From Bacillota bacterium (GTDB lineage: Bacteria; Bacillota; Halanaerobiia; B1SED10-174): a stretch of DNA of 64,000 bases. The position numbers and the translations under genes are program-made. This document shows positions 11,772-20,747 of this stretch, in pieces. Position 1 is the stretch's first letter. Each line of letters starts with the position of its first letter. The notes below the pieces were generated by a model that saw nothing but the letters and a program-made list of their open reading frames with translations, was not told where the DNA came from and did no database searches. Location: the NCBI GenBank assembly GCA_007122335.1, contig SKTZ01000014.1, positions 6,170 to 70,169 on the forward strand. The letters are read 5' to 3'.

Positions 11772-12509
11772 ATGTTTAAATACCGGGGAACTTTAGCTTA
11801 TGATGGGCGAAATTTATCAGGATGGCAGAGGCAGGCCAATACAGATAATACCATCCAGGAATGGATGGAAAGAGCAATTGCAAGAATTAGCCGGGAAAAA
11901 GTGCATGTCATCGGAGCAGGAAGAACTGATGCGGGTGTCCATGCGGAAGAACAGGTATTTCACTTTTCCCTTCGGGAGGAAATAGATGCCCGGAAGCTCC
12001 GGGGAGCAATTAACGGAAATATTCCCCGGGAAATCGCGGTCCTTTCTTTAGAGAGGACGGACAAAAACTTTCATGCTCTTCGTGATGCCCGGCAAAAATG
12101 GTATCGCTACCGGATTTTAAATCGCCCTGTTCGGTGCCCTTTGAGAGCTGGTTTTGTTCTTTTTTGCCCTTATCCGCTTGATCTTGAGTCCATGCAAAAA
12201 GGAGCTCAATTCCTTAAAGGAGAACATGATTTTGCTTCTTTTTGTGCTTCGCGAAGTGGTGCCAAAACCACCGTTCGCAACTTAAAAACTCTCGATTTTT
12301 TCCGTCAAGATGATGAGATCCATATTGATTTTATGGCCGAGGGCTTCCTTTATAAAATGGTCCGGAACATTACAGGGACACTGTTAGAAGTAGGTAGGGG
12401 CAAGTTACCCCCGGAATCTGCAGAAAAGATTTTGCAGGGGAGGGACCGGAGGTTTGCTGGGCCAACAGCACCCGGGTACGGCCTAATCCTGCTGAAAATT
12501 GATTACTGA
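11772..12509 (+). CDS. truA: tRNA pseudouridine(38-40) synthase
   Basis: 245-aa ORF with GAGRTDAGVHA, where the Asp is the catalytic residue. Conserved position after ecfT. Confidence 0.92.
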   Translation: MFKYRGTLAYDGRNLSGWQRQANTDNTIQEWMERAIARISREKVHVIGAGRTDAGVHAEEQVFHFSLREEIDARKLRGAINGNIPREIAVLSLERTDKNFHALRDARQKWYRYRILNRPVRCPLRAGFVLFCPYPLDLESMQKGAQFLKGEHDFASFCASRSGAKTTVRNLKTLDFFRQDDEIHIDFMAEGFLYKMVRNITGTLLEVGRGKLPPESAEKILQGRDRRFAGPTAPGYGLILLKIDY

Positions 12510-12526
12510 ATGAAAGGTTTGCAGGC

Positions 12527-12555
12527 TTGACAGTTTGTCCTTATTGTAATAAAAT
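12527..12555 (+). promoter_or_regulatory. sigma-A promoter for rplM-rpsI
   Basis: TTGACA at 12527-12532, a 17-nt spacer, and TAAAAT at 12550-12555. A roughly 70-nt leader follows before rplM, which may be the L13 leader. Confidence 0.6.
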
Positions 12556-12626
12556 ATCCTTTGGACGACTCATCCTTTCCTAGCCCCGGAAAAGGAGAGT
12601 ATCCGTGAAGATTGGAGGTAAATCGA

Positions 12627-13076
12627 ATGAAAACCTATATGCCCAAGGCAGAAGACATAGAACGTTCCTGGTATGTAGTCGATGCAACGGGAGTTCCTCT
12701 GGGACGCCTGGCTTCAGAAGTGGCGAAAATCCTTAGAGGGAAACACAAACCAACTTTTACTCCCCACCTGGATATGGGAGATTATGTAGTAATAACCAAC
12801 GCTGAAAAAGTTGTCCTTACCGGGAAAAAATGGGAAGAAAAAGTTTATTATCACCACAGCAATTATCCCGGTGGTTTGAAAGCCACCGTCTACAAAGAAA
12901 TGGCCAAGAAATTTCCCGAACGGGTTGTAGAACTTGCCGTTCGCAGGATGCTTCCCCAGAATAAATTGGGACGCAAAACCTTTAAAAAGCTGAAAGTTTA
13001 TCGGGGAGAAAATCATCCCCATGCCGGACAGAAACCCGAGACAATGGAAGTTCAGAAGTATAGAGAGGAGGAATAA
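12627..13076 (+). CDS. rplM: 50S ribosomal protein L13
   Basis: The ORF track begins at TTG 12612. ATG 12627 ([20 protein letters not shown]...) sits 8 nt after GGAGG. Sequence is canonical L13. Confidence 0.93.
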
Positions 13077-13079
13077 ACT

Positions 13080-13472
13080 TTGCAAAGAGATTACTATATT
13101 GGAACCGGTCGTAGAAAAGAATCAGTTGCCCGCGTTCGCCTCCTCCCGGGTAAAGGGGAAATTAAGATCAACGGAAAACCTTCCCCCGAATACTTCCATC
13201 GAAAAGCCCTGGAAAAGATGATTATTCAACCCCTGGAGATTACTGGAACTGCTGGCAATTTTGACGTAATAGTAAAAGTTCAAGGTGGGGGAATTTCAGG
13301 CCAGGCTGGAGCAGTCCGACACGGAATCGCTCGGGCGCTGCTTGATGCTGACGAAGATTACAGGGTTCCCCTGAAAAAAGCAGGGATGCTTACCCGCGAT
13401 CCCCGCATGGTAGAAAGAAAAAAATACGGTTTGAAAAAAGCAAGGAAGGCTCCTCAATTCTCCAAGCGTTAA
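13080..13472 (+). CDS. rpsI: 30S ribosomal protein S9
   Basis: 130-aa ORF ending in the conserved S9 tail ([17 protein letters not shown]). Confidence 0.95.
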
Positions 13473-13480
13473 AAACAACA

Positions 13481-13517
13481 ATCCTGGTCGTTTATGGCCA
13501 GGATTTTTATTTTTTTC
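13481..13517 (+). terminator. rho-independent terminator after rpsI
   Basis: Hairpin ATCCTGG-loop-CCAGGAT at 13481-13504 followed by TTTTTATTTTTTT. Confidence 0.8.
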
Positions 13518-13550
13518 ACGCAGGGAAAAGGACCGGGAATGTCAAAATTC

Positions 13551-13579
13551 TTGCATAAAGGAAAATAATTATTTAAAAG
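13551..13579 (+). promoter_or_regulatory. candidate promoter for the AmmeMemoRadiSam operon
   Basis: TTGCAT at 13551-13556, a 17-nt spacer, and TAAAAG at 13574-13579 (a weak -10). A GGGAGGG ribosome-binding site follows before ATG 13607. Confidence 0.4.
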
Positions 13580-13606
13580 GTAAAAAAAATCAGGGAGGGA
13601 AATAAA

Positions 13607-14941
13607 ATGCCCTTGGAAATTGCGGCTTTAGCGCCCCACCCGCCCATAATAATTCCCGAAATCGGGGGTGGCGAAAGGAATAAAGTTGCGAAGACTATTG
13701 AATCAATGGAAGAATTGGCCAGAATTTTTGTAGGTAAAGAACTAGATGTCCTAGTAACGATAAGTCCCCATGGTCCTGTTTTTTCTGATGTAATCAGCAG
13801 TCTCCACGTGAATCCCATCAGGGGTTCTTTTGCTGCCTTTGGCCACCCCCAGGTTAGCCTGACGCTGGAGCTTGAAGAAACACTTAGTGAAAATATTAAC
13901 CGGGAAATGGAAAGAGAAAAAATACCTTTTCGAAAACTTAGAGAAGAAGACTGCAAACGTTTCAGGATAACCCCTGAACTGGACCACGGCGTCCTTGTCC
14001 CCTTATATTTTCTTCAGGAGCAGGGAATTGATTTGCCCCTGGTTCCACTGAACATGGGTCTTTTAACCTATGCAGAATTAATTCAAGCAGGAAATGTTCT
14101 GCAGAGAGTTTTCGCTGATTACCCTGCCCGGATCGGAGTTATTGCCAGCGGTGATTTGTCCCATCGCCTCACAAAAAATGCTCCTGCGGGTTATAGTCCT
14201 CAGGGGCGGGAATTTGATGAAAAGGTTATGGAAATAATTGAAGGGGGGAACCTTTTAGAGTTAAAAGACCTTGACCCGATTCTTGTAGAAAGAGCAGGTG
14301 AATGCGGGCTGCGGCCTCTTTTAATTCTTGCCGGTGTTCTTTCCGGCAAACCAGTAAAAAGCCAGGTGCTCTCCTATGAAGGACCATTTGGAGTTGGCTA
14401 TGGAGTTGCCTGTTTTACCGAGGGAAGTGCTGCCCCTCCGGGCCTGGCCAGAAAAGCAGTAGAAGCATACCTGGAAAAAAAGGAAGTAATAGAACCTCCT
14501 GCTGAGCTTCCGGACCTGTTTAAAGTAATGGCTGGAGCCTTTGTTTCTATTAAAAAGCTTGATGGGTCTTTGCGTGGCTGTATCGGCACCCTGGAGCCTA
14601 CCCAAAAAAATCTTGCCCAGGAAATAATCAGGAATGCCATCCAGTCTGCCTTCAAAGATCCCCGCTTTCCCCCAGTCAGTAAGATGGAAATGGAAGAACT
14701 TGTTTTTTCCGTTGATGTAATTCATCCACCTGAACCAGTAGATAGTATTGCCGACCTGGACCACAAAAAATACGGTGTTATTGTTGAGAAAGGCGGGAAA
14801 AAGGGAGTTTTACTCCCGGACCTGGAGGGAATTAATTCTGTAGAGGAACAGGTGGAAATTGCTAAAATGAAGGCTGGGCTGGGAGGAACTCCTGATGTTT
14901 TCCTGAAAAGGTTCCAGGTTGAAAGATATATACAGGAGTGA
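13607..14941 (+). CDS. fusion protein: LigB/Memo-like extradiol-dioxygenase-fold domain + AMMECR1 domain (AmmeMemoRadiSam components A and B fused)
   Basis: 444-aa single ORF. The N-terminal roughly 270 aa shows class-III extradiol dioxygenase / Memo-clan motifs (APHPPIIIPEIGGGER, VTISPHGP, ASGDLSHRL). The C-terminal roughly 170 aa carries the AMMECR1 hallmark SLRGCIGTLEP. It sits immediately upstream of the cognate radical SAM gene. Confidence 0.75.
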   Translation: MPLEIAALAPHPPIIIPEIGGGERNKVAKTIESMEELARIFVGKELDVLVTISPHGPVFSDVISSLHVNPIRGSFAAFGHPQVSLTLELEETLSENINREMEREKIPFRKLREEDCKRFRITPELDHGVLVPLYFLQEQGIDLPLVPLNMGLLTYAELIQAGNVLQRVFADYPARIGVIASGDLSHRLTKNAPAGYSPQGREFDEKVMEIIEGGNLLELKDLDPILVERAGECGLRPLLILAGVLSGKPVKSQVLSYEGPFGVGYGVACFTEGSAAPPGLARKAVEAYLEKKEVIEPPAELPDLFKVMAGAFVSIKKLDGSLRGCIGTLEPTQKNLAQEIIRNAIQSAFKDPRFPPVSKMEMEELVFSVDVIHPPEPVDSIADLDHKKYGVIVEKGGKKGVLLPDLEGINSVEEQVEIAKMKAGLGGTPDVFLKRFQVERYIQE

Positions 14942-15012
14942 ATAATTTTTTCTATCTCAGGCAGGAAGATGAAAAAATTGAGGGAATATAATAATGTTGG
15001 GAGGAAAAATCC

Positions 15013-15993
15013 TTGCAGGAATCAGCTTATTATAAGCGGGAAGATAAAGGGTTCCGCTGTGAATTGTGTCCTCAATCCTGCTTTCTTGATACGGGTGCTG
15101 TGGGTCTCTGTGGGGTTAGAAAAAACATGGGAGAAAAGGTTGTTGCCTTAAATTACGGGAAGATCGCAGCCCTTGCCCTGGATCCCATTGAAAAAAAACC
15201 CCTGTATCATTTTTTCCCGGGGTCACATATTCTTTCGGTGGGAACCTTCGGTTGCAATTTTAACTGTGGTTTCTGTCAGAACTGGGCACTTGCCCAGGGG
15301 CATGCTCCAACCCAGGATACAACATGCTGGGACCTTATCTCCCGGGTCCAGAGGCCGGACAATATTGGTCTGGCCTTTACCTATGCTGAACCCCTGATGT
15401 GGTATGAATTTATCCGGGATATGCTTCCCAGGCTCAAAGAAAAAGGGCAGAAAACGGTTCTGGTAACCAACGGTTATATTAATCCTGCTCCCTTAGAAGA
15501 AATTCTACCCTATATAGATGCTGTTAACATTGATATCAAAACTTTTTCCAGCGGAACCTATTTCCGCTATTGCCAGGGAAATTTAAACCGGGTTTTGAAA
15601 AATACCCTGCTTTTTGCCCGTAACTGCCACGTTGAAATTACCACGCTGATAATTCCAGGTGTAAACGATAGTAATGCTGAAATAGGACGCCTGGTTGAAT
15701 GGATTTCAGAAGAAATCGGTCCTGAAACCCCATTTCACCTTTCCCGCTATTTTCCCGCATACAAGTTTACCACTCCTCCTACCAGCATTAAAAAATTAGA
15801 AGAACTGTATCACCTGGCCGGGGAAAAACTATCCTATGTTTACCTGGGGAATATATCGGACTTTCGTTATCAACACACCTACTGTTCTCAATGTGGGTTT
15901 ACGGTTATTAAAAGAGGTTTCCAGGTTACAGTTGATCTATATAAAGGAAACACCTGCCCGGAATGCGGGCAGTCCATCAATATAATAAACTGA
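15013..15993 (+). CDS. AmmeMemoRadiSam system radical SAM enzyme
   Basis: 326-aa ORF with an N-terminal Cys-rich segment (CELCPQSC...GLCGVR) and a CNFNCGFC radical SAM CxxxCxxC motif. It resembles PFL-activase-like radical SAM enzymes and sits in the conserved position beside the AMMECR1 gene. Confidence 0.8.
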   Translation: MQESAYYKREDKGFRCELCPQSCFLDTGAVGLCGVRKNMGEKVVALNYGKIAALALDPIEKKPLYHFFPGSHILSVGTFGCNFNCGFCQNWALAQGHAPTQDTTCWDLISRVQRPDNIGLAFTYAEPLMWYEFIRDMLPRLKEKGQKTVLVTNGYINPAPLEEILPYIDAVNIDIKTFSSGTYFRYCQGNLNRVLKNTLLFARNCHVEITTLIIPGVNDSNAEIGRLVEWISEEIGPETPFHLSRYFPAYKFTTPPTSIKKLEELYHLAGEKLSYVYLGNISDFRYQHTYCSQCGFTVIKRGFQVTVDLYKGNTCPECGQSINIIN

Positions 15994-16005
15994 GGAGGGA
16001 CTTAT

Positions 16006-17322
16006 ATGAAACAAAAAGTTCTAATTATGGGTGCAGCCGGAAGGGATTTTCATAATTTTAACACCTATTTCCGTGACAATGAAGATTACGAGGTGGTTGC
16101 TTTTACCGCCACCCAGATCCCTGATATTCACGGAAGAAAATATCCGGGGACACTGGCTGGTCCCCTTTATCCTGACGGGATACCTATTTATGATGAATCT
16201 GAACTGGTCAGGCTGATTAAAGAAAAAGATGTTGACCAGGTTGTTTTTGCGTACAGTGATATTTCCCACAAAGAAGTTATGAACAAAGGTTCTGTTGTTA
16301 TGGCTGCAGGTGCTGATTTTAGACTTATGGGACCCAATACAACCATGCTCAAGGCCAATGTTCCGGTTGTCGCTGTTTGTGCGGTTAGAACCGGTGTTGG
16401 AAAAAGCCAGACAACCCGTCGGGTGGCAAAGATCATGCAGGATGAAGGGAAAAAGATAGTTATAATCCGCCATCCCATGCCTTACGGTGATCTTGCCAAG
16501 CAAACCTGCCAGCGTTTTGCAACCTACGAGGACCTGGACAAACATGACTGCACAATTGAAGAAAGGGAAGAGTACGAACCCCATATTGACAACGGTTTCG
16601 TTGTTTTTGCTGGTGTTGACTACCAGGAAATTCTCAAGCAAGCAGAAAAGGAAGCAGATGTTATCCTCTGGGATGGAGGGAATAACGACCTGCCATTTTA
16701 TCTTCCTGACCTGCACATTACCCTTGTTGATCCCCACCGCCCTGGAGATGAGCTGGCCTACTATCCCGGCGAGACTAACCTCCGCATGGCTGATGTAGTT
16801 GTAATTAACAAGATCGAGACCAGTTATCCCGAAAAGGTTGAAGAAGTCCGGGTAAATGTCCGAAAAGCCAACCCTGAAGCCATTGTTGTGGAAGCGGCTT
16901 CCCCGATTTTTGTGGAAAAATCAAAAGAACTTACCGGGAAAAGAGTTCTGGTTGTAGAAGATGGGCCAACTTTAACTCACGGGAACATGGCCTATGGAGC
17001 CGGAGCTATTGCAGCCCGGAAATACGGCGCCAGTGAACTGGTTGACCCCCGTCCCTATGCTGTGGGATCACTTGTTGATACATTTGAAAAATATAGTCAC
17101 CTTTCTGATATCCTGCCAGCGATGGGTTACGGCCGGAAGCAGATGGATGAACTGGAAGAAACTATTTCTCGGGCCGAAGCAGATGCAGTCCTTATTGGAA
17201 CTCCTATTGATCTTCGCCGCCTGGTAAAAATTGATAAGCCCGCTTACCGAGTTCGTTACGAATTACAGGAAATTGGTGAACCAAATCTCAAGGATATCAT
17301 TCTGGAACGAGTGCTCAAGTAA
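16006..17322 (+). CDS. cyclic 2,3-diphosphoglycerate synthetase-like P-loop protein
   Basis: 438-aa ORF starting 12 nt after the radical SAM gene. A central P-loop (VRTGVGKSQTT) and overall architecture recall archaeal cDPG synthetase (CpgS) homologues found in some Clostridia. The call is made from memory of the family and is not verified. Confidence 0.45.
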   Translation: MKQKVLIMGAAGRDFHNFNTYFRDNEDYEVVAFTATQIPDIHGRKYPGTLAGPLYPDGIPIYDESELVRLIKEKDVDQVVFAYSDISHKEVMNKGSVVMAAGADFRLMGPNTTMLKANVPVVAVCAVRTGVGKSQTTRRVAKIMQDEGKKIVIIRHPMPYGDLAKQTCQRFATYEDLDKHDCTIEEREEYEPHIDNGFVVFAGVDYQEILKQAEKEADVILWDGGNNDLPFYLPDLHITLVDPHRPGDELAYYPGETNLRMADVVVINKIETSYPEKVEEVRVNVRKANPEAIVVEAASPIFVEKSKELTGKRVLVVEDGPTLTHGNMAYGAGAIAARKYGASELVDPRPYAVGSLVDTFEKYSHLSDILPAMGYGRKQMDELEETISRAEADAVLIGTPIDLRRLVKIDKPAYRVRYELQEIGEPNLKDIILERVLK

Positions 17323-17323
17323 A

Positions 17324-17360
17324 GAAAAAACCCTGCAGCCCTTTGCTGCAGGGTTTTTCT
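17324..17360. terminator. bidirectional rho-independent terminator
   Basis: AAAGAAAAAA, then CCCTGCAGC-loop-GCTGCAGGG, then TTTTTCTT. It separates the + operon from the convergent aldo/keto reductase gene. Confidence 0.85.
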
Positions 17361-18319
17361 TAACTGAATTTCTTGACAGACCGGTTAATCCGTGCCATTA
17401 CATCTTCGGTTAGCATTTCTTTTACTGAAATTGCCTTAATATTTTCCTCGATCTGATCCTTGTTAGTGGCCCCGATTACAACTGAATTGACCTTTGAATT
17501 TTTTAAACACCAGGCTACTGCAAGTTTTGCCAGCGTACTATCCAGGCTATGGGCAATTTCTTTTAATTCATCGATAATTTTTAGATTTTTTTCCTCCAGA
17601 TAACCTTCCTGAGAAAGCCACTGGAATTTTCCAATTCGGCTTCCCTTAGGTATGCCCTCCTGGTATTTTCCGGTAAGAACACCTGCATAAAGGGCATAGT
17701 AGGTAGTTAGCCCCATCCCGTATTTGGGATATAGAGGTGCGTATTCTTCTTCAACTCGCTTGCGAGAAAAAATATTGTATTTAACCTGCTCAACCAGAGG
17801 AGGAACTGCATTTAACTCCCGGGCTGCGTTATGAGCCTTTTCGATCTGGCTTCGCGACCACTCGGAAGTTCCCCAGTATCGGATTTTGCCTTCATGGACA
17901 AGGTGATCCATGGCCCGAACGGTTTCATGAATGGAGGTATCAGGATCATAACCATGGCAGTAGAGAATATCTACATAATCAGTCTGCAATCGGCGCAGGC
18001 TATTATGAAGGCCGTCAACAATGTGCTTGTGGTTTAACCCTTTTTGACTGGGTTTTGTTCCTCCGTACATAACCTTGGTTCCGATGATAAATTGATCTCG
18101 CGGAATATAGCGCATCAGTTCGCCTATTATTAGTTCCGCCTTTCCCAGGCCGTACTGTTCGGAGGTGTCGATGTAGTTGATTCCCCCGTTCAATGCTGCC
18201 GCCAAACATTCTTTAATAGTGTGAAGGTTATCATGCTGGCAGAAGAAACTGTACTGAGAAGAGCCCAGGCCCAGGGCGCTGGCCTTTAATCCCGACCTTC
18301 CTAAAGAATTATAGTCCAT
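17360..18319 (-). CDS. aldo/keto reductase family oxidoreductase
   Basis: 319-aa ORF with AKR family motifs (NYIDTSEQYG, IIGTK, HGYDPD); Kv-beta-like subfamily. Confidence 0.85.
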   Translation of the reverse strand: MDYNSLGRSGLKASALGLGSSQYSFFCQHDNLHTIKECLAAALNGGINYIDTSEQYGLGKAELIIGELMRYIPRDQFIIGTKVMYGGTKPSQKGLNHKHIVDGLHNSLRRLQTDYVDILYCHGYDPDTSIHETVRAMDHLVHEGKIRYWGTSEWSRSQIEKAHNAARELNAVPPLVEQVKYNIFSRKRVEEEYAPLYPKYGMGLTTYYALYAGVLTGKYQEGIPKGSRIGKFQWLSQEGYLEEKNLKIIDELKEIAHSLDSTLAKLAVAWCLKNSKVNSVVIGATNKDQIEENIKAISVKEMLTEDVMARINRSVKKFS

Positions 18320-18518
18320 AACAGCCTCCTTTTTGCAGGTTATAATTTATCTTATTAACTAAAAATCCAAAAAATCCTGTTTCCACTTGTAAAACTTATT
18401 AAAGGGTTTGCCCATTTTTTAACGTAATTATAAGCAGAGGGTTTGTGAGAAAAAGGCATATGATCCAGAAGGACCTGGCCTTCTTGCATCAATACTATGA
18501 GGTGAGGAGTGATTTTTT

Positions 18519-19556
18519 TTGGCAAAAACCATGAAAGCATTAATGAAGAAAAAATCAGCAGTAGGGGCTTCTCTGGAAGAGGTGCCCCTTCCCAAGATCA
18601 AAAACGGGGAAGTCATGGTAAAAGTCAAGGCAGCAGCAATATGTGGAACAGATGGACACATCTATTCCTGGGATCGCTGGGCTGAATCCCGGATTAAACC
18701 CCCTCTGATTTTTGGGCATGAGTTTTGTGGGGAAATAGTGGAAGTTGGTTCCGAAGTAAAAGATTTAAAAGTAGGGACAAAGGTTTCTGCCGAAGGCCAT
18801 TTTATCTGCGGAAAATGTTTTTTCTGCAGGACAGGTCAGGGGCATATCTGCCAGGATGTAGAAATAATTGGGGTGGATACCGATGGCTGTTTTGCGGAGT
18901 ACGTGCGGGTTCCTGCTGAGAATATCTGGGTTATGGACCCCAGTATTCCCGAAGAAATAGCTGCCATCCAGGATCCGGTAGGAAATGCGGTCCATGCTGC
19001 TCTGATTGATGAAATTGTCGGAAACAATGTCCTGATAACAGGATGCGGACCCATTGGCCTGGCTGCAGTTGCTATCTGCCGGTTTGCAGGGGCCAGGAAG
19101 ATTTTTGCAACTGATGTTAACCAGTACCGCCTGGATCTGGCCAGGAAACTGGGTGCAGATTTTGCCTATAATGCGGTTGAAACAGACCTGGTTAAAGAAG
19201 TCTTGAAAGAAACCCATGGATTGGGCGCAGATGTTTTCCTGGAAATGGCGGGGAAAGAAAAAGCCATTAATGATGGTTTCAAGGCCCTGCGTAAGGGGGG
19301 CTGGATTTCTCTCCTGGGAATTACGGATGGGAATGTAAGTCTTGATATTAACGATGGGCTGGTTTTCAAGGGGGCCAAACTATACGGGATCAATGGGCGG
19401 CTTATGTATGATACCTGGTACAAAATGGAAGCCCTGCTTTTGTCGGGACTTGATTTAAAGCCCCTTGTTACCCACTCTTTTTCTTTTGAAGAATTTGAAA
19501 AGGCCTTTGACCTGGTTCTTTCCGGGTCGTGTGGCAAAGTAATATTATATCCGTAA
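18519..19556 (+). CDS. tdh: L-threonine 3-dehydrogenase
   Basis: 345-aa zinc-dependent MDR alcohol dehydrogenase (CGTDGH, GHEFCG, a Cys-rich structural-zinc loop). It lies upstream of kbl, the classic tdh-kbl pair. Confidence 0.88.
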   Translation: MAKTMKALMKKKSAVGASLEEVPLPKIKNGEVMVKVKAAAICGTDGHIYSWDRWAESRIKPPLIFGHEFCGEIVEVGSEVKDLKVGTKVSAEGHFICGKCFFCRTGQGHICQDVEIIGVDTDGCFAEYVRVPAENIWVMDPSIPEEIAAIQDPVGNAVHAALIDEIVGNNVLITGCGPIGLAAVAICRFAGARKIFATDVNQYRLDLARKLGADFAYNAVETDLVKEVLKETHGLGADVFLEMAGKEKAINDGFKALRKGGWISLLGITDGNVSLDINDGLVFKGAKLYGINGRLMYDTWYKMEALLLSGLDLKPLVTHSFSFEEFEKAFDLVLSGSCGKVILYP

Positions 19557-19568
19557 GGAGGATCCAAG

Positions 19569-20747
19569 ATGACACAGGAGAAAATGAATTTTATCGATCG
19601 TGAACTACAGGAATTAAAAGATGAAGGTCTATATAAGGATATTAAAACCCTGGAAGGAGCCCAGGGCGCATGGGTGCAGATTAAAGGAGAAAAGGTTCTG
19701 AATTTCTGTTCCAATAATTACCTTGGGTTTGCTGCTGATTCAAGGATAAAGGAAGCAACAAAAAAAGCAATTGATAAATACGGGGTTGGGCCGGGTGCAG
19801 TTAGAACCATAGCGGGCACAATGACCATTCACAAAGAACTGGAAGAAGAACTCGCCAGATTTAAAGGGGTAGAAGCCACTCTGGTTTTGCAATCCGGCTT
19901 TATGGCAAATCTTGCCGCCATTCCAGCCCTTGCTGATAAAGGCGATACAATTATTAGCGATGAGCTCAACCACGCCAGCATTATTGATGGATCCAGGTTG
20001 AGCCGGGCCAATAAAAAGGTTTATCCCCACAACGATATGGAGGGTTTGGAGAAAGTTCTCAAAGAAACCCCCGAAGGGAAAAAGCTGATAATTACCGATG
20101 GGGTTTTCAGTATGGATGGTGATATTGCTCCTCTCCCGGGAATAGTTGAACTGGCTGAAAAATACGGGGCAATGACCTTCGTGGATGATGCCCATGGGGA
20201 AGGGGTAGTTGGCCGGGATGGCCGGGGGATTGTGGATCACTTCAACCTGCATGGGCGGGTTGATGTGGAAGTTGGGACTTTTTCAAAAGCCCTGGGAGTT
20301 ATGGGAGGAGTAATTGCAGGAAGTAAAAAGCTGGTGGAATACCTGGTTCAGAAAGCCCGTCCCTTTACCTTCAGTTCTGCTCTGACAGTGCCTGATACTG
20401 CGGCAACTCTTGAAGCGGTCCGGATTCTTTCCGAGAGCGGTGAACTGGTTGAAAAACTCTGGGATAACGCCCGTTATTTCCAGGAAGGTATCAAGGAGAT
20501 TGGCCTGGATACAGGAGTAACTGAAACTCCGATTACACCTGTAATGATTGGTGAAGCCCATCAGGCTGCAGAATTCAGCAAAAAACTTCTGGAGGAGAAA
20601 ATATTTGCCCAGTCAATTGGATTTCCTCTTGTTCCCCGTGGAAAAGCCAGGATCAGGGTCATGATTTCAGCGACTCACAGTAAATCAGATCTTGACTTTG
20701 CCCTGGACAAATTCAGGAAAATAGGAAAAGAGCTGAAACTGGTTTAA
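19569..20747 (+). CDS. kbl: glycine C-acetyltransferase (2-amino-3-ketobutyrate CoA ligase)
   Basis: 392-aa PLP-dependent class-II aminotransferase (SNNYLGFA..., FSKALG with the Lys). Adjacent to tdh. Confidence 0.9.

Follow-up and report, generated by a model that had tools for sequence, protein, structure and literature searches.

We conclude that the three adjacent genes described here are likely to represent two functionally separate modules within one probable transcription unit: an AmmeMemoRadiSam pair (genes 1 and 2) and a gene of the ArcE arginine synthetase type (gene 3). The functional independence of the two modules is what we infer from the family assignments and gene contexts presented below, and the adjacency of the radical SAM (rSAM) gene and arcE is no sign that the AmmeMemoRadiSam proteins act on phosphoglycerates. 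The genes lie in a 64,000-nucleotide stretch of Bacillota DNA, the whole of which is referred to as the window.

Organization and transcription of the locus

The features of the locus are as follows.

13480-13505, plus strand: intrinsic terminator after rpsI, with an 11-bp stem and a T-run
13607-14941, plus strand: gene 1, a fusion protein of 444 residues
13622-14407, plus strand: LigB/Memo-superfamily domain of gene 1 (residues 6-267; Pfam LigB, E 2e-39)
14444-14926, plus strand: AMMECR1 domain of gene 1 (residues 280-440; Pfam AMMECR1, E 3e-46)
14919-14946, plus strand: promoter-like TTGAAA-16-AATAAT (10 of 12 consensus matches) at the 3' end of gene 1
15013-15993, plus strand: gene 2, a radical SAM enzyme of 326 residues
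16006-17322, plus strand: gene 3, a P-loop protein of 438 residues
17325-17359, both strands: bidirectional intrinsic terminator, with a 15-bp stem and T-runs on each strand

The reading frames, their lengths, and the gaps of 71 nt (14941 to 15013) and 12 nt (15993 to 16006) between them agree with those of an earlier, sequence-only reading of this DNA, and a Shine-Dalgarno-like GGAGG lies 5' of each of the three. The terminator after rpsI, whose hairpin is also kept in a 93%-related genome (L085), sets the ribosomal-protein operon apart from the three-gene set. At the other end, the strong bidirectional terminator reported by that reading was recovered at 17325-17359, where it is common to gene 3 and a convergent aldo-keto reductase gene (17360-18319, minus strand). 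Sub-threshold Rfam Thr_leader matches at the same position are terminator look-alikes. The candidate promoter placed before the set fared less well, as a sigma-70 consensus scan gave no match at about 13551, although a block, ATGTCAAAAT(T/C)CTTGCA, is kept there in L085.

Genes 1 to 3 probably form one transcription unit, as proposed earlier; co-transcription is suggested by the layout, with three genes on the same strand, short gaps, and no plus-strand terminator-like hairpin found between 14941 and 16006. These same observations argue against the alternative that genes 2 and 3, or gene 3 by itself, are transcribed apart from gene 1, giving two units between the two terminators. Such an arrangement, which we regard as rather unlikely, would draw on the promoter-like site at 14919-14946 and on a TATAAT-containing block in the 71-nt junction that is fully conserved relative to L085, and because of these an internal start for genes 2 and 3 is possible; consensus promoter matches in the region nevertheless number 16, against 9.5 +/- 2.7 expected from shuffled sequences.

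The AmmeMemoRadiSam pair

Gene 2 encodes the radical SAM enzyme of the AmmeMemoRadiSam system, a relative of the pyruvate formate-lyase (PFL) activases, as had been recognized from the sequence. It scores 291.5 bits with TIGR04337 (cutoff 220), matches Pfam Radical_SAM, and carries the CX3CX2C cluster motif as C81-x3-C85-x2-C88, with further cysteines in an N-terminal cluster (C16, C19, C23 and C33) and a C-terminal CxxC...CxxC. The rSAM gene directly adjoins the fusion gene in 44 of the 54 fusion loci that have enough flanking sequence.

The fusion of a LigB/Memo-clan domain to AMMECR1 in gene 1 is likewise borne out. The C-terminal part (residues 280-441) exceeds the cutoff for AmmeMemoRadiSam protein A (TIGR04335, 133.6 bits, cutoff 99), contains the LRGCIG motif at residues 322-327, and resembles PH0010 (PDB 1vaj) both in sequence (E 2e-19) and in fold (Foldseek rmsd 1.7). 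The choice between Memo and LigB for the N-terminal domain, which the sequence-only reading had left to profile searches, falls towards LigB. The TIGR04336 model for protein B scores 24.7 bits, just under its cutoff of 26, and among 32 fused homologues this model matches 30 at E<1e-3 whereas HpaD/LigB-type models match all 32, the best E values being 6.8e-11 and 8e-18, respectively. The best match to the domain in both sequence (E 1e-16) and structure is TK2203 of Thermococcus kodakarensis (PDB 5hee; TMt 0.85, rmsd 2.6 A, 25% identity), followed in the Foldseek comparison by extradiol dioxygenases (TMt 0.7-0.79), against 0.50-0.55 for MEMO1. The N-terminal domain thus resembles TK2203 and the class III extradiol dioxygenases more closely than it does MEMO1, and a LigB-type, TK2203-like domain occupies the place of protein B in gene 1. 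Residues H11, H55, D126-H127, D183, H186 and C233 are invariant in the 32 fused homologues, and C233 may map onto the Glu position of the dioxygenase His/His/Glu iron triad, as in Memo. TK2203 itself differs in being a stand-alone protein without the AMMECR1 fusion and in having an Asp aligned to Cys233.

An association of Memo, AMMECR1 and radical SAM proteins is described by Burroughs et al. (2019, J Biol Chem), and genes 1 and 2 conform to the AmmeMemoRadiSam system in that both proteins, AMMECR1 and rSAM, exceed their curated cutoffs, their genes neighbour each other on one strand, and a LigB/Memo-superfamily domain accompanies protein A. They depart from it in having protein B fused to A, with a LigB-type sequence below the TIGR04336 cutoff and a fold closer to the extradiol dioxygenases than to MEMO1. 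The fusion had been put forward as a possible clue to the substrate, but it is not a new one, because the fused A/B form is widespread in Bacillota and already annotated: the best 120 database matches to gene 1 all combine PF02900 and PF01871, and many of them are already named "AmmeMemoRadiSam system protein A" or "A/B" by NCBI and JGI. The earlier reading stated that the trio has no biochemically defined function, and in agreement our literature search found no paper that defines one.

Family assignment of gene 3

From its sequence relationships and predicted fold, we place gene 3 in the ArcE family of arginine synthetases; this family and cDPG synthetase (cyclic 2,3-diphosphoglycerate synthetase) are sisters within one P-loop superfamily. 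The protein carries the Walker A motif G130-x-G-K-S134, its predicted structure has a pLDDT of 89.6, and it matches no Pfam or NCBIfam family at or over its cutoff. Over its full length it is 48% identical to a protein of Hyperthermus butylicus and 46% to one of Pyrodictium occultum; its identity to a protein of Thermosediminibacter oceani is 72%. All three genera are named among those carrying arcE (PMC11032458). ArcE, described from TK2200 of T. kodakarensis by Michimori, Yokooji and Atomi (PNAS 2024, PMC11032458) and the subject of a follow-up paper (PMC13260591), catalyses the reaction Arg + ADP + Pi <-> citrulline + NH3 + ATP. Gene 3 resembles TK2200 in its length of about 440 residues, its P-loop fold, its low similarity to cDPG synthase and the 'putative GTPase' label in public records. 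The two also share a structural neighbour, LpxK: 4ehy is given for TK2200 (PMC11032458), and 4ehx, 4ehy and 4lkv follow the cDPG synthetases among the Foldseek matches to the gene 3 model.

Gene context at the level of the family, whose members share 64-80% identity across phyla, is consistent with this assignment. At species level, 80 loci of the gene 3 family were compared: the carbamate kinase gene (arcC) directly follows in 16 of them, an OTC gene is nearby in 9 and argS directly precedes in 19. Proximity of arcE homologues to arcB and/or arcC in some genomes was observed when arcE was proposed (PMC11032458). Gene 3 itself departs from this pattern, as neither arcB, arcC nor argS was found within the 64-kb window; it is placed instead after the AmmeMemoRadiSam rSAM gene and before tdh-kbl. 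Orthology to the assayed TK2200 is argued by way of a chain of homology, the family-level gene context and the published genus list, and ArcE activity of the gene 3 protein is predicted on the same grounds; our search of the ArcE literature found no assay of a bacterial family member.

The sequence-only reading had taken gene 3 for a cDPG synthetase-like enzyme acting on phosphoglycerates, which would suggest that the AmmeMemoRadiSam proteins have a phosphoglycerate-type substrate. The resemblance on which this was based is real, in that the best solved-structure matches by both sequence and fold are cDPG synthetases, with gene 3 falling in the same P-loop superfamily as the Methanothermus fervidus enzyme (8ork/8oru). 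It is nonetheless weak and partial: the match to structure 9sxb (E 6e-7) covers 123 residues, that to the M. fervidus enzyme (E 0.026, 16.8 bits) only residues 216-329, or 114 residues, and the best PDB fold match (Foldseek E 5e-17) has 14-15% identity and a TM score of 0.44-0.47. Public records name relatives of gene 3 'GTPase' or 'cyclic 2,3-diphosphoglycerate synthase', the latter label being given to several close homologues by the NCBI pipeline. Against a function in phosphoglycerate metabolism, the family neighbours are arcC, OTC and argS rather than glycolytic or 2-phosphoglycerate kinase genes, the family is spread over a wide range of bacterial and archaeal phyla, and in the ArcE study homologues of cDPG synthase serve as a low-similarity outgroup (PMC11032458). 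The taxonomic range also differs, cDPG being known from hyperthermophilic methanogens. We thus consider the phosphoglycerate reading highly improbable. The suggestion that linkage to gene 3 hints at a phosphoglycerate substrate falls with it, because gene 3 belongs to the ArcE family and because the linkage is restricted to a few Bacillota lineages.

Linkage of the pair to arcE and other arginine genes

A census for a recurrent third gene beside the pair had been proposed, and such recurrence holds for a few related Bacillota lineages but not more generally. Of 80 arcE loci, 2 have any AmmeMemoRadiSam component within 8 kb, and of 45 fusion loci extending at least 4.5 kb downstream, 1 includes arcE. 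Linkage was seen in the clade of the window (L085 and L088), in L093, in Anoxybacter fermentans (L092), in L125 and in L010; the pair is not beside arcE in the close arcE relatives P0012 and P0013 (81%), P0021 (78%), P0050 (77%), and P0036 and P0064 (76%), and the T. oceani fusion gene has no arcE next to it. In a conserved Bacillota backbone, truA-rplM-rpsI-(cwlD) is followed by the A/B fusion and rSAM genes and then either by arginine genes (argCJBD or arcCBE), which are often found there, or by cdaA-glmM. The arrangements, of which at least six place A/B and/or rSAM genes beside arginine genes, are as follows.

Window and L093: fusion-rSAM-arcE-tdh-kbl after rpsI
Anoxybacter (L092): fusion-rSAM-arcE-tdh-kbl near the chromosome start
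L125: fusion-rSAM-arcC-arcB-arcE, in a tight row on the same strand
L010: SPL-rSAM-arcC-GT2-arcE
L096, L098, L130, L132, L147 and L156: fusion-rSAM, with argCJBD further on
L148: fusion, with argCJBD further on and no rSAM match in the census
L155: unfused LigB and AMMECR1, then argCJB within 100 nt, with glmM upstream on the opposite strand

These arrangements raise the alternative that the pair has a role in the metabolism of arginine, citrulline or ornithine in Bacillota, for instance by modifying or activating an enzyme of the arginine pathway or by using a guanidino, ureido or ornithine-type metabolite as substrate. In that case the placement of the pair beside arcE would reflect an operon in a functional sense as well. 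There may be such a tie, because just 12 nt (window) or 5 nt (L093) separate the rSAM and arcE genes, because of the row in L125, and because arginine genes follow the pair in about one-quarter of fusion loci with enough downstream DNA; in addition, TK2203 is, by locus tag, three from TK2200 in T. kodakarensis. We nevertheless judge the coupling improbable. The association is missing from 78 of the 80 arcE loci and from most fusion loci, argCJBD lies 0.5-2.2 kb from the rSAM gene, and the other downstream neighbour, cdaA-ybbR-glmM, is equally unrelated. Moreover, in a neighbor-joining tree the rSAM genes linked to arcE fall into only about three groups, in 10 other archaeal loci no LigB-like ORF was found close to arcE, and the loci joining the pair to arginine genes are not independent events, since most share the truA-rplM-rpsI-cwlD backbone.

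Discussion

In the reading that we prefer, two modules side by side, genes 1 and 2 constitute the standard two-gene AmmeMemoRadiSam form of Bacillota, a LigB-type/AMMECR1 fusion with an rSAM partner. The radical SAM enzyme could generate a 5'-deoxyadenosyl radical acting on a substrate in the AMMECR1 cleft, and an accompanying step of redox or ring chemistry might take place at the LigB-like metal site (His11/His55/His186/Cys233). Gene 3 would encode an ArcE-type arginine synthetase, reversibly converting arginine, ADP and Pi to citrulline, NH3 and ATP, and its partners in arginine catabolism, ornithine carbamoyltransferase and carbamate kinase, would have their genes elsewhere in the genome. 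The pair and arcE presumably became neighbours inside the conserved Bacillota backbone.

With an ArcE-type neighbour, the locus provides no phosphoglycerate clue to the function of the pair. Homologues of the AMMECR1 and Memo components occur in archaea, bacteria and humans, and the tie to arginine metabolism, if true, would be the first substrate-class lead for the trio of AMMECR1, Memo/LigB-like and radical SAM proteins.

Gene organization and transcription

The three open reading frames of the locus have the coordinates, lengths and gaps that the sequence-only reading assigned to them, and each is provided with a GGAGG-type ribosome-binding site. Genes 1 and 2, a LigB/AMMECR1 (A/B) fusion and its radical SAM partner, are separated by 71 nt and are referred to here as the pair; gene 3, arcE, begins 12 nt after gene 2.

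Features of the three-gene locus
13480-13505, terminator after rpsI, 11-bp stem
13607-14941, plus strand, gene 1, A/B fusion, 444 aa
14919-14946, promoter-like site from a sigma-70 consensus scan
15013-15993, plus strand, gene 2, radical SAM partner, 326 aa, TTG start
16006-17322, plus strand, gene 3, ArcE-family arginine synthetase homologue, 438 aa
17325-17359, bidirectional terminator, 15-bp stem, common to gene 3 and a convergent aldo-keto reductase gene

Because neither junction (14942-15012 and 15994-16005) contains a terminator-like plus-strand hairpin – weak matches exist in coding regions – the three genes are likely to be co-transcribed. A promoter proposed near 13551 has no consensus match in the sigma-70 scan. 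The promoter-like site at 14919-14946, together with a conserved TATAAT block in the gene 1/gene 2 junction, suggests that a transcription start may lie at that junction, inside the three-gene set. An Rfam scan of 12400-18700 gave nothing above gathering score; sub-threshold Thr_leader matches on both strands at 17291-17407 coincide with the bidirectional terminator hairpin and are almost certainly a terminator look-alike. Identical copies of the locus are found in soda-lake sediment metagenomes and metagenome-assembled genomes (MAGs).

The fused A/B protein and its radical SAM partner

Pfam places a LigB domain at residues 6-267 of gene 1 (E 2e-39) and an AMMECR1 domain at residues 280-440 (E 3e-46). 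The protein passes the model for AmmeMemoRadiSam protein A (TIGR04335; 133.6 bits, cutoff 99) and falls slightly below that for protein B (TIGR04336; 24.7 bits, cutoff 26), while gene 2, with its CX3CX2C motif, passes TIGR04337 (291.5 bits, cutoff 220). The choice between Memo and LigB for the N-terminal domain had been left to profile searches, and these prefer LigB/HpaD-type models, the Memo signal being weak. The closest solved relative is TK2203 (5hee; E 1e-16), and in a confident structure model (pLDDT 92.8) the domain superposes better on TK2203 (TMt 0.85) than on class III extradiol dioxygenases (0.7-0.79) or MEMO1 (0.50-0.55). On these three grounds it is classed with the LigB-type proteins of the LigB/Memo superfamily, occupying the B position. 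Residues H11, H55, D126-H127, D183, H186 and C233 are invariant across the fused family, in which a Memo-like His/His/Cys site is predicted.

The fused architecture is the norm in Bacillota and is not unusual. Both the LigB and AMMECR1 domains are present in all 120 best matches from a collection of 5.8 billion proteins, many of which also match Memo, and NCBI and JGI already name the homologues 'AmmeMemoRadiSam system protein A' or 'A/B'. At 444 aa the fusion protein is some 20-25 residues shorter than most homologues in our alignment A2 (465-475 aa). Of the 54 metagenomic fusion loci whose flanks are long enough, 44 have the radical SAM gene directly beside the fusion. That the function of the trio is undefined, as the sequence-only reading held, agrees with our literature search, which found incidental mentions alone and no paper defining its biochemistry. 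A comparative study of the PCAD/Memo families by Burroughs et al. (JBC, 2019) is said to have proposed nucleotide-base or isoprenoid modification for the system.

Gene 3 belongs to the ArcE family

Gene 3 exceeds no family cutoff in Pfam or NCBIfam, with sub-threshold cobW and ATP_bind_1 matches in the former and no matches in the latter. Conservation in its family is very strong, members from Bacillota, Chloroflexota, Thermotogota, Acidobacteriota, Bathyarchaeia and other groups being 64-80% identical. Among 80 species-level loci, carbamate kinase lies directly downstream in 16, ornithine carbamoyltransferase nearby in nine, and arginyl-tRNA synthetase directly upstream in 19, nearly all of them Chloroflexota; the identities of these neighbours were confirmed with NCBIfam. 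Neighbours of this kind are characteristic of ArcE, an arginine synthetase (TK2200) described in 2024 from Thermococcus kodakarensis, which catalyses Arg + ADP + Pi <-> Cit + NH3 + ATP (PMC11032458). According to its authors, homologues lie near arcB and/or arcC in some genomes, are annotated 'putative GTPase', and combine low similarity to cyclic 2,3-diphosphoglycerate (cDPG) synthase with an LpxK-like structure (4EHY); Hyperthermus, Pyrodictium and Thermosediminibacter are among the genera they name (PMC11032458). Compared along the whole protein, gene 3 shares 48% identity with the Hyperthermus butylicus homologue and 46% with that of Pyrodictium occultum; its identity to the Thermosediminibacter oceani protein is 72%. 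With a Thermoproteota homologue as query, the matches came from Hyperthermus, Pyrodictium and Ignisphaera and none from Thermococcus; orthology of gene 3 to the assayed TK2200 is inferred from homology, the gene context of the family and the genera that the authors name.

The sequence-only reading had likened gene 3 to cDPG synthetase and drawn from it a hint of a phosphoglycerate substrate. We reject this reading because the gene 3 sequence resembles such enzymes only marginally (E 0.026 against the characterised enzyme of M. fervidus and E 6e-7, across 123 residues, against 9sxb), because a confident structure model of gene 3 (pLDDT 89.6) matches them at 14-15% identity, followed by LpxK including 4ehy, and because the family's neighbours are arginine genes; the substrate hint falls with it. 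No arcB, arcC or argS is present in the 64-kb window.

Many ArcE-family proteins (P0040, P0045, P0055, P0062, P0088, P0403, P0411, P0487 and others) bear the NCBI pipeline name 'cyclic 2,3-diphosphoglycerate synthase', which is probably a systematic misannotation. Other public names are 'GTPase' and 'cobalamin synthesis protein P47K'; the clusters of ten deep representatives yield no name but 'predicted GTPase', and NCBIfam release 20 has no model matching the family. Such labels misled the first reading of this locus and will mislead other inferences from gene context.

Some family members are far longer (P0246, 766 aa; P0247, 655 aa; P0263, 651 aa; P0348, 806 aa), and their ArcE-like region lies C-terminally, which suggests fusion to N-terminal domains. 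In Chloroflexota (Anaerolineae), arginyl-tRNA synthetase precedes arcE directly on the same strand (loci L013, L019, L021, L026, L027, L030, L033, L036, L037, L040, L045, L049, L051, L054, L057, L065, L066 and L075), an association not mentioned in the ArcE passages of PMC11032458.

Linkage of arcE to the pair

Placement of arcE after the radical SAM gene does recur in a few Bacillota lineages, but it is rare overall: phmmer and our own HMMs find an AmmeMemoRadiSam component within 8 kb of arcE in 2/80 arcE loci, and arcE is present in one of the 45 fusion loci whose downstream sequence extends to 4.5 kb or more. Among Bacillota with a closely related arcE, the order is seen in the window's own clade (L085 and L088; arcE 93% and 89% identical) and in another soda-lake MAG (L093; arcE 80%, fusion 54%). 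Anoxybacter fermentans (L092; arcE 73%, fusion 48%) has fusion-EamA-CYTH-rSAM-arcE-tdh-kbl. The rSAM-arcE order is absent from six further lineages, whose arcE is 76-81% identical, and from beside the T. oceani fusion. Locus L010 reads SPL-rSAM-arcC-glycosyltransferase-arcE. Numbers of independent linkage events cannot be read reliably from a neighbor-joining tree of the radical SAM proteins, whose branches are long and star-like. Beyond arcE the window has tdh (L-threonine 3-dehydrogenase) and a BioF/Kbl-family acyltransferase, probably glycine C-acetyltransferase (kbl), at 18519-20747; L092 and L093 have the order arcE-tdh-kbl too, with no aldo-keto reductase gene in between, and the three genes form a small amino-acid catabolism block.

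A census of neighbours at 83 fusion loci reveals a conserved Bacillota backbone, truA-rplM-rpsI-(cwlD)-[fusion-rSAM], followed by argC-argJ-argB-argD, usually past a gap of 0.5-2.2 kb (L096, L098, L130, L132, L147, L148, L156), or else by cdaA-ybbR-glmM. The window fits this backbone, with truA-rplM-rpsI-fusion-rSAM-arcE, the opposed aldo-keto reductase gene, tdh-kbl and, further on, cdaA and glmM-glmS. At L125 (7941-13657) the order is fusion-rSAM-arcC-arcB-arcE. Arginine genes, biosynthetic or catabolic, would hold a syntenic position after the pair, which arcE may have entered, or whose occupant it may have replaced, the tight spacing being secondary. At present this is the simplest account of the adjacency, and backbone synteny best explains the recurrent arginine neighbours. 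A functional link between the pair and arginine genes has a low probability; it is kept alive by the variety of arrangements and by locus L155 (1336-5958), where separate genes for a LigB-like protein (262 aa) and AMMECR1 (186 aa), 3 nt apart, are followed within ~100 nt by argC-argJ-argB in a different upstream context, with glmM upstream on the opposite strand. The 9-kb L155 contig has no radical SAM gene. In T. kodakarensis, TK2203 is three locus tags from arcE (TK2200); ten other archaeal loci have no LigB-like open reading frame near arcE.

Conclusions

The locus consists of an AmmeMemoRadiSam pair of the ordinary, fused A/B kind and an arcE gene. The AmmeMemoRadiSam pair, the A/B fusion and a probable single transcript survive from the sequence-only reading, but the phosphoglycerate enzyme and its substrate hint do not. 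The significance of the locus is small, as the families of both modules have been described and the fusion is normal in Bacillota. The one lead that is left is a possible, unproven association between arginine genes and the pair; the recurrence of these genes beside it offers a cheaply testable hypothesis. AMMECR1 still stands in a published list of top-priority uncharacterised conserved archaeal proteins, and a genomic coupling of it, if real, would therefore be valuable.
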